Shown here one piece after another: positions 33,001-39,000 of a stretch of DNA of 41,869 bases (positions are counted from its first letter, which is position 1; every line of letters starts with the position of its first letter). The position numbers are program-made. Where the stretch lies: the IMG/VR virus record IMGVR_UViG_2531839449_000046; one strand, 5' to 3'. The DNA comes from a virus (lineage: Duplodnaviria > Heunggongvirae > Uroviricota > Caudoviricetes).

Positions 33001-36000
33001 ATTCAATTTACGGTGGAATGATGAAAGTAACTGCAAACGGTAAGACATTTACCTTCCCTGATGGTACGAGCACGGAAGATATTGGAGCCGCCATTGATGA
33101 TTATTTTGCTGGTCAGGTTGTTCAGCAACAAACAGTTAATCAGGCCAATAATGCACCAGTACGTGAAGAACCATCATTGATGCAACAAGCTGGCGATTGG
33201 CTCACTGGTGGTCAAAGTGCAGGGCAAATTGCAGAACAGGCTGGTCGTGGTCTGGTAAACATACCATTTGACGTATTGCAGGGTGGCGCAAGTCTGATTA
33301 ATGCAATCAGTCAGGGGCTTGGTGGGCCAAAAGTTTTGGATGATGTTTATCGTCCAGTAGACAAACCGACAGACCCATACGCACAAGCCGGTGAAACAAT
33401 TGGTGGGTATTTAGTTCCAGGAGTTGGAACGGCAGGAAGCATGGCTATTGGATCGCTGGCAGAGGCCGCAAATCAGAAAGGCGATTTCGCACAAAATGCA
33501 GCTAAAAATGCCGGAGTTAACCTTGCCGCTCAGGGTGTTCTTTCCGCAGCAGCAAAGGGAATAGGGCGTGGAATAACGGCTATAAAAGGTGATATTGCGC
33601 CAGAAGTGGCGAAGAAAATTGCCACATCAGAATCGATGGGCGTGACACCAATGACATCTGATGTTATCCCGCCGAAAAATGCTTTCACTCGCGGCCTTAC
33701 TCAGGATGCCGAGGGGGCTTTGCTCGGGACGGGCTCAAAGCGAGCAGAGCAATATGCAACGCGGAGTAAGCTGGTAAGCAATTATTTTGACCGTTTTGGT
33801 GAGTACAACCCTGATGATGTGGTGAAATCTCTGACCACCACGTTAAGGGGGCGGAAGGATGCCGCTGGCGCTGTTATCAATGACGTCACCAATAAAATGG
33901 GTAATGCCGCAGTTGATACCACAAATACCATGAATGCTCTGAATACAGCGATCGCAAGACAGGAACGGCTTGGGACGTCTGCCAATCAAAGCCTGCTTAC
34001 ATCCTTGCGTAACCTACGTGAAGAATTAGCAAACCCTGCAACTGATTTGGATGTTACGTTTGATCTCTTGCGTCAGCACAGAACAGCATTTAGATCTAAT
34101 GTTCAGGGAGATGCTATGGTCTTCCCCAACCAGGCAAAAGCAGCTACCAATATGGTAGAGAATGCAATGTCAAAAGACCTTCGTAACGCAGTTGCTAAAA
34201 ACCTCGGTGCATCAGACGCAGCAAAATACCTTAAAGCAAATTCCGATTATGCAAACGTTTATAATAAGGTGCTTAATAAAAACATTGCCAACAAGCTCAA
34301 CAAGGCAAGCAGTGAAGCCAGTCCTGAACTTATAAATACCGTTGTATTAAGCAGAAAACCATCTGACGTGAAACGAATCTGGAGCGCACTGGATGATAAG
34401 GGGAAAGATGCTATGCGTGCAGCTTACGTCAGCAAAATAGCGGAAAAGGCCGGGGACTCTCCAGCCAAGTTCATCACTGAAGTTAATAAGCTGAAATCTC
34501 AGTCAGGCGGTGAAATTTACAACACTATTTTTTCTGGAAAGCACATGAAAGAGCTTGATGCTCTTCATGAAGTTCTACAGCAAACAGCAAGGTCAGACAC
34601 CGCAAATGTAGTAACTCAGACGGGGCAATCGCAAGCCAACAGGATAAGGACGATTGGCGCAACTGCGACCCTTGGCGTATCAATGGGGCTTGAGGCTGGT
34701 TTTGGTGCAATGATGCGCTTGTATGAGTCCAAAGCAGCAAGGAATATGCTTCTTCGTTTGGCAAACACCAAAGCAGGAACACCAGCCTATGAAAGAGCGA
34801 TAAATAACGCTGCGAATGCCATCAGACCGCTGTTTGCTACTGAGGCAACACAGCAGTAACGTATGGGAAATTGGATTCAATCGCTAACATTTTCTTTTTA
34901 CTTTTCCAACAAAAGCTTTGGTTGAATCCATATTTCCATAACCGGAAATGGTTTTTGACATTAAAACTGTTCCAGTAGGATGTATTACCCATGAGTCGAT
35001 AACGCGTTGAGTTTCGCCATTCGCGCCGATTCCTATGATGGAGTTTTTAGACAATGCTTTGTAAGCCATGCCGCCCGCATCTGTCCCAGAATATGTGATG
35101 CTGGCATCTTCACCGTTTGTCTTAATGATGAATGTTCCACTAAAACCATCTTCTTCCGGATGGAAATTATTTCGTTCTGAATAGCTTATTCCGCGCATAT
35201 TGAACCGCCCCGGAAATCCTGGAGACTAAACTCCCTGAGAAAGAGGTAAACAGGATGACTAAAAATACTCGTTTTTCCCCCGAAGTCCGTCAGCGGGCGA
35301 TTCGTATGGTTCTGGAAAGTCAGGATGAATATGACTCACAGTGGGCGGCAATTTGCTCCATTGCCCCAAAGATTGGCTGTACGCCGGAGACTCTGCGTGT
35401 CTGGGTTCGCCAGCATGAGCGGGATACCGGGGGCGGTGATGGTGGGCTCACCAGCGCTGAACGTCAGCGTCTGAAAGAGCTGGAACGTGAAAATCGTGAA
35501 CTGCGCCGCAGTAACGATATCCTTCGCCAGGCTTCCGCTTATTTTGCGAAGGCGGAGTTCGACCGCCTCTGGAAAAAATGATGCCACTGCTGGATAAGCT
35601 GCGTGAGCAGTACGGGGTCGGACCGGTATGCAGCGAACTGCATATTGCCCCGTCAACGTATTACCATTGTCAGCAACAGCGACATCATCCGGATAAACGC
35701 AGTGCCCGTGCGCAGCACGACGACTGGCTGAAGAGAGAGATACAGCGCGTATACGATGAAAATCATCAGGTGTACGGTGTGCGTAAAGTCTGGCGTCAGT
35801 TGTTACGGGAAGGAATCAGGGTGGCCAGATGTACAGTGGCACGTCTCATGGCGGTTATGGGACTTGCCGGTGTTCTCCGGGGTAAAAAGGTCCGTACGAC
35901 CATCAGCCGGAAAGCCGTTGCCGCAGGCGACCGCGTAAACCGTCAGTTCGTGGCAGAACGACCTGACCAGCTGTGGGTGGCTGATTTTACTTACGTCAGC

Positions 36001-39000
36001 ACATGGCAGGGCTTCGTCTATGTGGCGTTTATCATTGATGTGTTTGCCGGATACATCGTGGGGTGGCGGGTCTCATCGTCTATGGAAACGACATTCGTGC
36101 TGGATGCGCTGGAGCAGGCGTTGTGGGCCCGTCGTCCGTCTGGCACCATCCATCACAGCGATAAAGGCTCTCAGTATGTGTCACTGGCCTATACGGAGCG
36201 ACTAAAAGAAGCCGGATTACTGGCATCAACAGGGAGTACAGGCGACTCGTATGACAACGCGATGGCTGAGAGCATCAATGGTCTTTACAAAGCGGAGGTA
36301 ATACACCGTAAGAGCTGGAAAAACCGTGCAGAAGTGGAACTGGCCACACTAACGTGGGTGGACTGGTATAACAATCGACGATTGCTGGGAAGGCTGGGCC
36401 ATACTCCTCCGGCAGAAGCAGAAAAAGCTTATTATGCTTCCATCGGAAACGATGATCTGGCAGCCTGAGTTCACAGATAAAACACTCTCCAGGAAACCCG
36501 GGGCGGTTCACATCTCCAACGACCCAGCACTCTGCTGTAGCCCCAAAAGATATGAATAAGAACATAGCAGTAAGAAATTGCTTCACGCCAACCTCCTTAG
36601 TTTTGAGCAGGATACCATGAAAAAAGTAAACATCTTTTGCCTACTTCACATTTGAATGGTTTGTCATTAGGATGTTTCCGGTTTTTAAATATGGAAATTG
36701 ATATGAAGAGGATTATTGGCGTCGTTGCTGGCGCTATATTGTTATCTGGGTGCGCAACTATTGTTGGTGACGAAACGCAGCTTGTGCAAGTGAACAGCAA
36801 TCCTTCCGGTGCGAGCTTTAAGGTAAAAGACGAATCAGGCGTGATTGTTGCGCAAGGTAAGACCCCGCAAGGAGTAACTCTTGCCAAGTCAGATGGTAGT
36901 TATTTTGGCAAAAAGAGCTACCAGATCACTATGGAAAAGGATGGGTACGAACCAGTAACCCTGCCAATCAAAGCCAATGCTAATGGCTGGTATATTGGTG
37001 GAAACCTTGTGTTTGGTGGGTTAATTGGTTGGCTTGCTGTAGATCCTTTTAATGGTGGGATGTATACCTTGAAGCCAAAAGAGGCAAACGCATCTCTTAT
37101 ACCATCAACAAAGCAAGACTAATAAATAGGACCCACCTTCAGGTGGGTTTTTTGTACAAATCCTTCAGCGTATCAAACACCATCTTCTTAACAAGCTCTG
37201 ACTGCTCATCAGCGAGTCGTTCTGCATCGTCGCGATATCCAGTCACAGGCGATGGTTTTGATAGAGCATCTTGGACGATTTGTAACAACTCGGAGTTCAT
37301 TGATCTCCCATTCGCCTCCGCCCTGAATTTTAATTTCTCCCTTACTTCCATAGGCATACGGAAGTTAAAGTGCGGATCATCTCTAGCCATGCCATCACTC
37401 CAAGTTAGTGTATTGACATGATAGAAGCACTCTACTATATTCTCAATAGGTCCACGGTGGACCTATATTGTGAGGTGAATATGAAAGGAATGAGCAAGAT
37501 GCCGCAGTTCAATTTGCGGTGGCCTAAAGAAGTATTGGATTTGGTCCGCAAGGTGGCGGAAGAGAATGGTCGGTCTGTTAACTCTGAGATTTATCAGAGA
37601 GTAATGGAAAGCTTTAAGAAGGAAGGGCGCATTGGCGCGTAAAGTTGAAGCCCCAACTGCGGGAACAGTCAGGGCTTCGGTTGTCAGTAAATCCGTGGAG
37701 AAAAACCAACGTGAATAGTATAGCAATTTTAGAAGCAGTGAACACCTCTTATGTACCATTCAACGGTCAGCAAATTATCACCGCCATGGCTGCCGGAGTT
37801 GCATATGTTGCGATGAAGCCAATCGTTGAAAACCTTGGAATGAGCTGGTCAACGCAGCAAACAAAACTCATGAAGCAGATTAGCAAATTCAACTGTGTTC
37901 ATATGAACATGGTTGCCGCTGATGGGAAGCTTCGTAAGCTACTCTGCCTTCCTTTGAAGAAGTTAAATGGATGGCTGTTCAGCATCAACCCTGAGAAAGT
38001 TCGTGCTGACATCCGTGATAAACTGATTCAGTACCAGGAAGAATGCTTTAGCGTGCTGCATGACTACTGGACTAAAGGTCATGTATTTAACCCACGCAAA
38101 GCTAAAAAGGCGTTGCCGGGTAAAATCACCACTGAACAGCAGGAAGCCATTAAACAACTCGTCATGAGTCGCGGTCAGTCTCTGCCAAAAGAAAAACAGG
38201 CTAAGGCGATGATCACCATGTGGTCGTCACTAAAATCCCATTTTGGATGTTCGTACAAAGAAATCAGTGAGGAGCAGTTTACCGAAGCACTATCACTTGC
38301 AGCTCGAGTTCCACTTGAAGGTGAGTTCATTGGCAAACAAGAGAAGAAAACCAACGAGCTTTCTGCAAAAGAAGCAAACAGCCTTGTATGGTTATGGGAT
38401 TATGCCAACCGCTCACAGGCATTATTCCGCGAACTGTATCCGGCGCTAAAACAAATTCAATCGAACTATTCCGGCAGATGCTACGACTACGGTCATGAGT
38501 TCTCGTATGTTATCGGAATGGCGAGAGACGTTTTAATAAACCACACACGAGATGTTGATATTAATGAGCCAGACGGACCAACGAATCTTTCCGCATGGAT
38601 GAGACTTAAGAATAAAGAATTACCTCCTTCAGTACATAACTACTGACAGATAACCAACGCAACGACCCAGCTTCGGCTGGGTTTTTTTATGCCCAAAATT
38701 CACCGTAGCTACTCAGCGGCTATGGCCTTGAGAGATAGCACTACACAAAAAGTGTAGTGCAAAAAGCAAACAAATACTCACCGTAGCCACGCTGCGGCGA
38801 TTCCTTGTATCTGGAGCAAATTAAATGACAGACATTACAGCCAATGTGATTGTATCTATGCCTTCGCAACTCTTCACTATGGCGCGTTCTTTTAAAGCCG
38901 TAGCCAATGGCAAAATTTATATCGGTAAAATTGACACGGACCCGGTAAATCCTGAAAACCAGATTCAGGTTTATGTGGAAAACGAAGACGGCTCTCACGT

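Follow-up and report, generated by a model that had tools for sequence, protein, structure and literature searches.

Introduction

T4 Sp, Cor, Llp, and Ltp, which are periplasmic or lipoprotein exclusion factors, are small exported proteins of a resident phage that stop incoming phage DNA at the envelope; T4 Sp neutralizes a virion-borne peptidoglycan hydrolase. SieA, a protein of the inner membrane, stops DNA delivery by P22-like phages via the gp16/gp20 conduit (PMC10883804). Members of the SieA family share an FxRYPxEAxxFNK motif and have three or four transmembrane helices, and sieA is present in only 22 of 66 P22-like phages (PMC10883804). Hex of phage 434 takes its name from "heterologous exclusion" of P22 by imm434 lysogens, a genetically defined phenotype (PMC3564112). 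Within the protein family to which Hex belongs, an exclusion phenotype has been reported only for 434 Hex, by imm434 lysogen genetics (PMC3564112), and it was ascribed to the 434 hex ORF mainly as the sole ORF downstream of cI. In the literature we found no paper on the gp16-adjacent subfamily described below and none on the export of Hex.

Here, we analyze a gene in a 41,869-nucleotide stretch of tailed-phage DNA (IMG/VR record IMGVR_UViG_2531839449_000046; hereafter, the window) and compare it with these systems.

An IS629/IS1203 element divides a single accessory gene

Positions 34884-36586 of the window (minus strand) hold a single 390-bp gene, an accessory ("moron") gene carried by a P22-like prophage and disrupted past codon 25 by insertion of an IS629/IS1203 element. 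The element, an IS3 family member of 1,310 bp (35201-36510, plus strand), has its transposase opposite in direction to the split gene. Its ends are terminal inverted repeats, TGAACCGCCCCGG.../...CCGGGGCGGTTCA, of the TG...CA type, which, like the size of ~1.3 kb, are as expected for IS629/IS1203. Inside, orfA (35255-35581, 108 aa) and orfB (35578-36468, 296 aa) form an overlapping -1 frameshift pair; in a related strain, PGAP annotates this element as [quoted passage not shown]

The 5′ fragment of the gene (36511-36586, minus strand) comprises a GTG start at 36586-36584, the remainder of codons 1-25, and 1 nt. It is preceded by a Shine-Dalgarno sequence, AAGGAGGT (36591-36598, minus strand; core GGAGG at 36596-36592, 5 nt upstream of the GTG), which is conserved in most of 80 related loci. 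The encoded N terminus, MKQFLTAMFLFISFGATAECWVVGD, meets the element at 36510; it consists of the signal peptide MKQFLTAMFLFISFGATA followed by ECWVVGD, and reading on into the element yields a chimeric ORF of 103 aa (36586-36275). The 3′ fragment (34884-35200, minus strand) contributes 2 nt and then codons 26-129 (M26...KRKC), with a TAG stop at 34886-34884. Its ORF (104 aa, 35198-34884, minus strand) has neither a signal peptide nor a Shine-Dalgarno sequence of its own, and PGAP labels the same 104-aa remnant in strain 2013C-4081 a "hypothetical protein."

Deletion in silico of the element plus 3 bp produced a continuous ORF of 129 aa. IS-free E. coli prophages carry this ORF intact, with DNA identical to both flanks of the split gene; one intact allele is that of E. 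coli O111:H- 11128 (NC_013364, 2623150-2623539). This identity, together with the existence of homologs of the fused product, means that the two halves are one gene and not two unrelated genes. The GTG start is favored over the PGAP call, which gives 122 aa, because 12 of the 80 related alleles have ATG at the same position. The first-pass annotation, made from the sequence of the window, had described one small gene split by the second IS629 copy, in which a minus-strand GTG with AAGGAGGT opens a signal-peptide-like N terminus that runs into the element, a 104-aa ORF continues in frame to a stop at 34884, and the intact protein has about 130 aa. Each of these points agrees with the restored frame and the IS-free relatives. 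Neither of the outcomes that it had named as speaking against it, two unrelated genes at the junction or a fused product with no detectable homolog, holds.

The element is an inverted copy of copy 1 (10846-12155), from which it differs by 1 nt. To its left lies TAT (35198-35200), which on the plus strand equals the empty site (...GCGCA TAT CTCCAAC...), and to its right CAT (36511-36513), with one mismatch to that site, so that the target-site duplication is imperfect (2/3 match). Duplications at other IS629 insertions are a perfect 4-bp TCAT for copy 1 and AAG in strain 2013C-4081. We rejected inversion between the two inverted copies as the source of the imperfect duplication, since the duplication of copy 1 is perfect (4 bp) and IS-free relatives have the two flanks of copy 2 directly side by side. 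In its 1,310-bp length, IS3 family membership, and orfA/orfB organization, the insertion resembles IS629/IS1203 in prophages of EHEC-type E. coli, elements that are flanked by duplications of 3-4 bp and occupy 39-40 places per genome in related strains. It differs in the single mismatch of its duplication and in its exact IS-gene junction, which was found in 0 of the 5,426 complete E. coli genomes searched. In strain 2013C-4081, the same gene is interrupted 47 bp away, with a different duplication, and another IS lies beyond the lipoprotein gene.

We conclude that the split gene of the window is a null allele, an ordinary dead accessory gene: the 5′ piece codes only for a signal peptide, seven mature residues, and IS-derived read-through, and the 3′ piece is devoid of export and translation signals. 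The gene was found in 147 of the 5,426 complete E. coli genomes (~3%) and is uninterrupted in 146 of them, and each of the 80 IMG/VR copies is an unbroken 390 nt. It is under purifying selection (pN/pS across the 80 IMG/VR copies: 0.14 for the mature portion, 0.56 for the signal peptide).

The gene occupies the slot of sieA

The split gene lies just downstream of, and convergent with, the gp16-type DNA-ejection protein gene (33018-34859, plus strand), the last gene of the virion operon, at a gap of 24 bp and upstream of the mnt-arc-ant region. It adjoins gp16 in 79/80 loci, in prophages of differing composition and also where gp16 identity falls to 55-81%. P22 sieA likewise sits 22 bp past gene 16 on the opposite strand, where it has its own promoter. 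The two genes share a slot, an orientation, a ~22-24-bp spacing, and a position between gene 16 and gene 9 opposite the late operon, in keeping with the proposal of the first-pass annotation that this is an exclusion/moron locus of P22-like phages.

The proteins themselves are dissimilar. No sequence similarity of SieA to the product was detected by BLASTP (E 0.99), and homology was rejected on this value and on a structural model that is all-beta after the signal peptide. Whereas SieA has 162-164 aa, three transmembrane segments, and no signal sequence, the product here is predicted to be a secreted, soluble-type beta-barrel.

Twenty-two nucleotides upstream of the start lies a candidate extended -10 element, TGgTATCCT (36609-36617, minus strand), which is conserved across loci with unrelated upstream DNA and stands at the 5′ edge of the stretch of sequence that accompanies the gene when it appears in other genomic settings. 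This element may be the promoter of the gene; a consensus promoter scan of the minus strand gave no promoter for the gene that reached threshold. The neighboring lipoprotein, which is distinct from the split gene, gave weak matches to Cor models, over the signal peptide only.

The product is a divergent homolog of 434 Hex and Sf6 gp38

No match for the intact product was obtained with Pfam, NCBIfam, or PADLOC, and a sequence profile search of the PDB returned nothing meaningful (best E 0.95). The product is, however, a member of PHROG 2651, a family of "unknown function" (phrog_2651: E 2.9e-61 over residues 14-129), which Hex also matches (E 1.4e-58). Direct comparisons agree: tblastn against 2.3 Gb of phage DNA gave full-length alignments of the product with Hex and Sf6 gp38, with 27% of residues identical (E 2e-5 to 5e-4), BLASTP against Hex gave E 3e-12 with 27% identity over 133 columns, and hhalign of the two subfamilies gave 99.7% (E 7.4e-26). 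By sequence, then, the product is a divergent, full-length homolog of phage 434 Hex and Sf6 gp38, a relationship absent from the first-pass annotation. The proteins are also alike in size (129 aa here versus 134 aa), in a signal peptide followed by x-C-W (x-C-[WYF] in the family), and in a C terminus of the form FVG.V...C, and their carriers are temperate lambdoid or P22-like phages with the genes in positions typical of lysogen-expressed genes.

The two subfamilies differ in genomic setting. In 80/80 loci, the Hex-type copy comes straight after the cI repressor gene and overlaps its 3′ end. The arrangement recurs in Yersinia and Enterobacter prophages, and Hex-type copies are carried on the PRM transcript. 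Members of the gp16-adjacent subfamily are not immediately downstream of cI on that transcript; they stand alone, convergent with gene 16. Location next to cI is a mark of the Hex subtype and not of the protein family. Both subfamilies can occur on one 41-kb prophage contig (L030 and L151), and this co-occurrence suggests that they are not redundant. Near the repressor of the window, no second family member was found.

Export features and predicted fold

The intact product is a 129-aa precursor with a predicted signal peptide of the Sec/signal-peptidase-I type and a predicted cleavage site between ATA and E. The mature protein would have 111 aa (~12 kDa), beginning with E-C-W and ending in Cys, with no lipobox. 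These features extend across the family. Among 187 members, a hydrophobic h-region is present in 186, a positively charged n-region in 171, A, S, or G at position -1 in 168, and two or four Cys in the mature part in 176. In the family alignment C20, W21, and C129 show little or no variation, the invariant residues being C20, W21, G28, D42, Y71, G81, W95, K107, and G123. The first-pass annotation had expected a cleavable signal peptide and Cys near both ends. The signal peptide is indeed of a cleavable type, a Cys lies close to either end of the mature protein, and conservation of the two features extends through the family.

The product could instead act as published for 434 Hex, as a cytoplasmic "repressor protection protein" (the product name in one GenBank 434 record, OL657227) that binds the prophage repressor, blocks its RecA-stimulated autocleavage, and stabilizes lysogeny. 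The product is homologous to Hex, hex- lysogens show 30-fold more spontaneous induction in a recA-dependent manner, and the fragment sHex inhibits cleavage of the 434 and P22 repressors in vitro (PMC3564112). Yet the family-wide conservation of signal peptide, signal-peptidase site, and paired cysteines points to an extracytoplasmic protein. That study never considers export, with 0 mentions of signal, periplasm, or membrane, and sHex starts at E43 of a 158-aa ORF, the first residue past a predicted cleavage site between ANS and E. The gp16-adjacent gene, moreover, lies ~28 kb from the repressor region of the window, beside virion genes. We regard repressor protection as an improbable role for this product. 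The conserved export signal in itself fits poorly with the cytoplasmic anti-RecA role published for Hex (PMC3564112).

The high-confidence AF2 model of the product (pLDDT 88.2, pTM 0.77) shows a small all-beta meander barrel of nine strands after the signal peptide, the predicted strands being 15, 5, 6, 6, 6, 8, 9, 11, and 14 residues long. A disulfide between Cys20 and Cys129 probably joins the first strand to the last. A structure search returned generic barrel matches only; the predicted fold is a generic one that suggests no mechanism.

A loose resemblance to motifs of periplasmic lysozyme inhibitors, offered by the first-pass annotation as speculation, found no specific support. An MliC/PliC/Ivy-like protein that inhibits lysozyme or a murein hydrolase in the periplasm, neutralizing, for example, a virion-borne peptidoglycan hydrolase, would fit a predicted exported small beta-barrel with a probable disulfide, broadly the architecture of MliC/PliC, and some P22-like gp16 homologs are annotated as transglycosylases in phage records. 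But MliC, PliC, and Ivy HMMs gave no match at E ≤ 1 to the product or to ~24-25 diverse relatives, no lysozyme inhibitor was among the best 50 Foldseek PDB matches, and the invariant residues of the family do not reproduce what we take to be the MliC motifs. Such an activity is very unlikely.

Also rather doubtful is a host-fitness role with no bearing on phage exclusion, in which the moron would encode, for example, a calycin-like periplasmic protein that binds a ligand or a small barrel in the outer membrane with an effect on envelope properties. One Hex homolog is labeled "PagP" in a phage record, and some family members lie outside recognizable prophage immunity or virion modules, as in Aeromonas, where homologs sit in islands that show no obvious genes for phage immunity. 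Outer-membrane eight-stranded barrels of the OmpX/PagP/NspA type, however, have membrane-spanning strands of ~10 residues and a C-terminal aromatic beta-signal, whereas in the model four of the nine predicted strands, in a mature protein of 111 aa, have only 5-6 residues, and the C terminus (...VKRKC) carries no such signal but one of a conserved terminal Cys pair. A function unrelated to exclusion is also at odds with the exclusion genetics of Hex (PMC3564112) and with the strict association of the family with two lysogeny-expressed prophage slots.

Discussion

Our preferred reading, to which we give a probability of roughly 55% and which draws on analogy with Hex, is that the intact gene is a lysogen-expressed periplasmic superinfection-exclusion moron of the Hex family, inactivated in the window. 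The gene would be transcribed in the lysogen from its own promoter and its product exported to the periplasm; there, like Hex and the positional analog SieA, it would interfere with genome delivery by superinfecting phages, probably at the envelope-spanning ejection-protein conduit. The block of DNA delivery exerted by SieA is the kind of function that we propose. Several points count against this reading: 434 Hex, the one member with an exclusion phenotype, is only 27% identical; the single biochemical study of Hex gives it a cytoplasmic role (PMC3564112); the consensus scan called no promoter for the gene; some relatives, such as those of the Aeromonas islands, are found away from prophage immunity and virion modules; and the predicted fold is generic. 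T4 Sp, Cor, Llp, and Ltp offer a further parallel, being small exported products with an entry block at the envelope such as is proposed here, although no sequence relationship to them was detected and our product has no lipobox.

For the family as a whole (434 Hex, Sf6 gp38, and the gp16-adjacent subfamily; ~190 sequence clusters), we put forward a more tentative view, which we hold to be possible but short of an even chance: its members may be Sec-exported, disulfide-closed periplasmic beta-barrels that bar the entry of rival phage genomes, the published cytoplasmic anti-RecA mechanism may be an artifact of signal-less fragments, and the two paralogous subfamilies may have different phage targets.

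For the window itself, the finding has little consequence: the insertion is specific to the strain, and it has killed a gene on which nothing downstream depends. Its wider meaning is that a "hypothetical protein" of ~3% of complete E. coli genomes can now be linked with the Hex exclusion family and with the slot of sieA. The family-wide export signal conflicts with the sole mechanistic paper on Hex (PMC3564112), and the gene is a testable exclusion candidate for the many P22-like phages that lack sieA.

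An IS629/IS1203 copy interrupts a 129-codon gene

The split gene reported by the first-pass annotation is real and was correctly described. On the minus strand, a GTG start codon (36586) is preceded by the Shine-Dalgarno sequence AAGGAGGT (36598-36591), and the frame opened there, MKQFLTAMFLFISFGATAECWVVGD, enters IS sequence (TGAACCGCCCCGGG...) at 36510. Beyond the element, a 104-aa ORF (35198-34884, minus strand) terminates at a TAG. In silico deletion of the IS plus 3 bp joins the two parts into a single 129-aa ORF, as expected if the distal ORF continues the split gene to its stop at 34884 and if the intact product has about 130 aa. 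Sequences matching both IS flanks occur in many E. coli chromosomes, directly joined and with no IS between them; a three-way alignment gave the empty site as ...GCGCA TAT CTCCAAC.... The continuous ORF present at this junction in IS-free E. coli genomes is identical to the reconstructed one.

In an IS-free relative (L001 3186-3575), PGAP annotates the intact gene as hypothetical protein WP_001334102.1, 122 aa long and starting at an internal ATG, so that the signal peptide loses its positively charged n-region. The strong Shine-Dalgarno sequence, the charged n-region, and the presence of an ATG at the same position in 12 of 80 related alleles all favor the 129-aa start; judged on these sequence features, RefSeq probably places the start 7 codons too far downstream. 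An extended -10-like element, TGgTATCCT (36617-36609, minus strand), lies 22 nt before the start codon, and the stretch of sequence that moves together with the gene has its boundary just upstream of it. A consensus promoter scan called no promoter at this element.

The interrupting IS629/IS1203 copy 2 (35201-36510, 1,310 bp) is an inverted copy of copy 1 (10846-12155), from which it differs by 1 nt at IS position 156. It carries overlapping orfA and orfB in the arrangement typical of IS3-family elements, and the same element is named in the PGAP annotation of a related strain. Its target-site duplication, TAT (35198-35200) and CAT (36511-36513), contains one mismatch; relatives have TAT at the empty site. 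Either a point change followed insertion, or the duplication is an atypical 2-bp one with one extra base. An inversion between the two copies was ruled out as the cause, since the duplication flanking copy 1 is a perfect 4-bp TCAT. Copy 1 itself sits at the extreme 3′ end of a small ORF starting at 10655 (flanks 10655-10848), directly after a 483-aa ORF (9203-10654), and provides the stop codon of the small ORF.

Among the 5,426 complete genomes of E. coli, 147 have the gene, uninterrupted in 146 of them; the exact IS junction of the window occurs in none of the 5,426. E. coli 2013C-4081 (L006 3100-3300 and 4400-5200; NZ_CP027573) has an independent IS629/IS1203 insertion at a distance of 47 bp, among the codons of the signal peptide and flanked by a perfect AAG duplication, so the same 390-bp gene was struck in two different strains. 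In that strain another IS copy directly follows the lipoprotein gene, in the position held by mnt in the window. The 80 IMG/VR viral contigs with the gene contain 37 distinct alleles, every one 390 nt long and intact, with pN/pS of 0.14 in the mature part versus 0.56 in the signal peptide.

As for the consequence of the insertion, the predicted product of the 5′ piece (ORF 36586-36275) consists of the signal peptide followed by 7 native residues and then 78 residues read from the IS; the 3′ piece begins at M26 and has neither an export signal nor a Shine-Dalgarno sequence. Polar effects on adjacent genes are unlikely because the split gene forms a monocistronic unit that converges on the late operon. 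Neither the divergent lipoprotein gene nor the region upstream of it is affected. This is, we conclude, an ordinary knock-out by an IS within a known, poorly characterized family of prophage accessory genes.

The product is a divergent member of the Hex family

Searches of Pfam, NCBIfam, and PADLOC with the 129-aa protein gave no match; PHROGs assigned it to phrog_2651 (E 2.9e-61), labeled "unknown function". When the protein was compared with 50,697 phage records by tblastn, two groups were recovered: near-identical genes of Emek and ST-35, P22-like phages of Salmonella, and full-length matches of ~27% identity to the repressor-adjacent gene of 434, HK446, HK633, Sf6 (gene 38), and Sf101. The similarity to Sf6 gp38 is already recorded in the Emek GenBank entry. 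The phage 434 member is hex, whose product is assigned to the same PHROG and matches our protein in pairwise BLASTP (E 3e-12); profile-profile comparison of the two subfamilies gave a probability of 99.7% (E 7.4e-26, 129 columns). When 1.84 billion representative proteins were searched with a profile, 192 clusters matched at E<=0.001, and those listed were nearly all single-domain proteins of ~120-150 aa; none of 25 diverse family members had a Pfam match. The protein is a new, divergent Hex-family member in the sieA slot, and its novelty is low.

All aligned members share a hydrophobic N terminus, a small-x-small site followed by x-C-[WYF], and a C-terminal Cys, so the signal peptide and terminal cysteines noted earlier are conserved. 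Among 187 members, 186 have a hydrophobic h-region, 171 a net positive n-region, 168 A, S, or G at position -1, and 176 a mature part with 2 or 4 Cys, the sequence hallmarks of a Sec-exported, disulfide-bonded protein. The 129-aa protein lacks a lipobox. AlphaFold2, run on the family alignment, predicted nine strands and no helix apart from the signal peptide (pLDDT 88.2, pTM 0.77). Since C20 and C129 sit on the first and last strands of this model, a disulfide between them likely closes the barrel. The short strands (four of nine have just 5-6 residues), the 111-aa mature part, and the KRKC C terminus argue for a soluble rather than a membrane-spanning barrel.

Foldseek found no match at E<=0.001 in PDB or BFVD, and the structural similarity is generic only. 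The first-pass interpretation was largely right; its aside on periplasmic lysozyme inhibitors is the one part not upheld. A Hex homologue of phage Huey (PQ850609.1 25928-26323) is labeled [quoted passage not shown], probably a structure-based misannotation from the generic 8-stranded barrel fold.

The gene occupies the sieA slot of P22-like prophages

In 79 of 80 viral loci the gene converges on the gp16 ejection-protein gene and lies ~30 bp downstream of it, a position kept even where gp16 identity is just 55-81%. In P22 the same slot is filled, in the same orientation and with the same spacing, by sieA, a gene with a promoter of its own; the locus is, as proposed, one where P22 carries a superinfection-exclusion gene. 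SieA and our protein are unrelated in sequence. SieA resides in the inner membrane and prevents DNA from being delivered via the gp16/gp20 conduit, and sieA is present in only 22 of 66 P22-like phages (PMC10883804).

The flank opposite gp16 is variable. In the window it holds a divergent gene (36703-37122, plus strand) for a lipoprotein of 139 aa, which has LLSGC as its lipobox, is hydrophobic in a C-terminal segment, matches the PEGA domain below threshold (E 0.0037), and is assigned to phrog_6823 (unknown function). A PEGA-like lipoprotein gene is present beside the split gene in just 22 of 80 related loci, so this one is probably a separate moron.

Unlike the gp16-adjacent type, Hex-type copies always have an overlapping imm434-type cI upstream (80 of 80 loci). 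The homologues carried by Yersinia and Enterobacter prophages, which are more divergent, likewise overlap a repressor gene, here of the S24-peptidase type; in Aeromonas the copies are located in islands without an obvious repressor. No second family copy was found in the window. One P22-like prophage contig, IMGVR_UViG_648276644_000012 (41,039 bp), carries both the gp16-adjacent and the cI-adjacent paralogue (L030, L151), which suggests that the two are not redundant.

Export features conflict with the published Hex mechanism

Hex was named for heterologous exclusion: in the work of Susskind and Botstein, as summarized in PMC3564112, Salmonella lysogens of lambda imm434 exclude P22, and hex- lysogens fail to do so. 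The same paper puts Hex forward as an inhibitor of RecA-stimulated repressor autocleavage, on the basis of sHex, an active 61-residue fragment expressed without a signal peptide, and reports, unexplained, that over-expressed full-length Hex is lethal. Its Hex ORF has 158 aa and starts 24 codons upstream, inside cI; we confirmed this ORF in phage 434 (L003 2429-2905, OL657227). The N-terminal residue of sHex, E43 of the 158-aa ORF, is the first residue past the predicted signal-peptidase site (ANS|ECW) of 134-aa Hex. PMC3564112 makes no mention of a signal, signal peptide, periplasm, or membrane. Given the conserved export features, a cytoplasmic role for the native protein is hard to accept.

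The original genetics, the location in the sieA slot, and the confinement of the family to lysogeny-expressed prophage positions fit a product that would act in the periplasm and block phage genome entry, a reading to which we give a probability of roughly 0.5-0.6. The sole point of wider interest is this conflict between the export signals of the family and the published mechanism of Hex.
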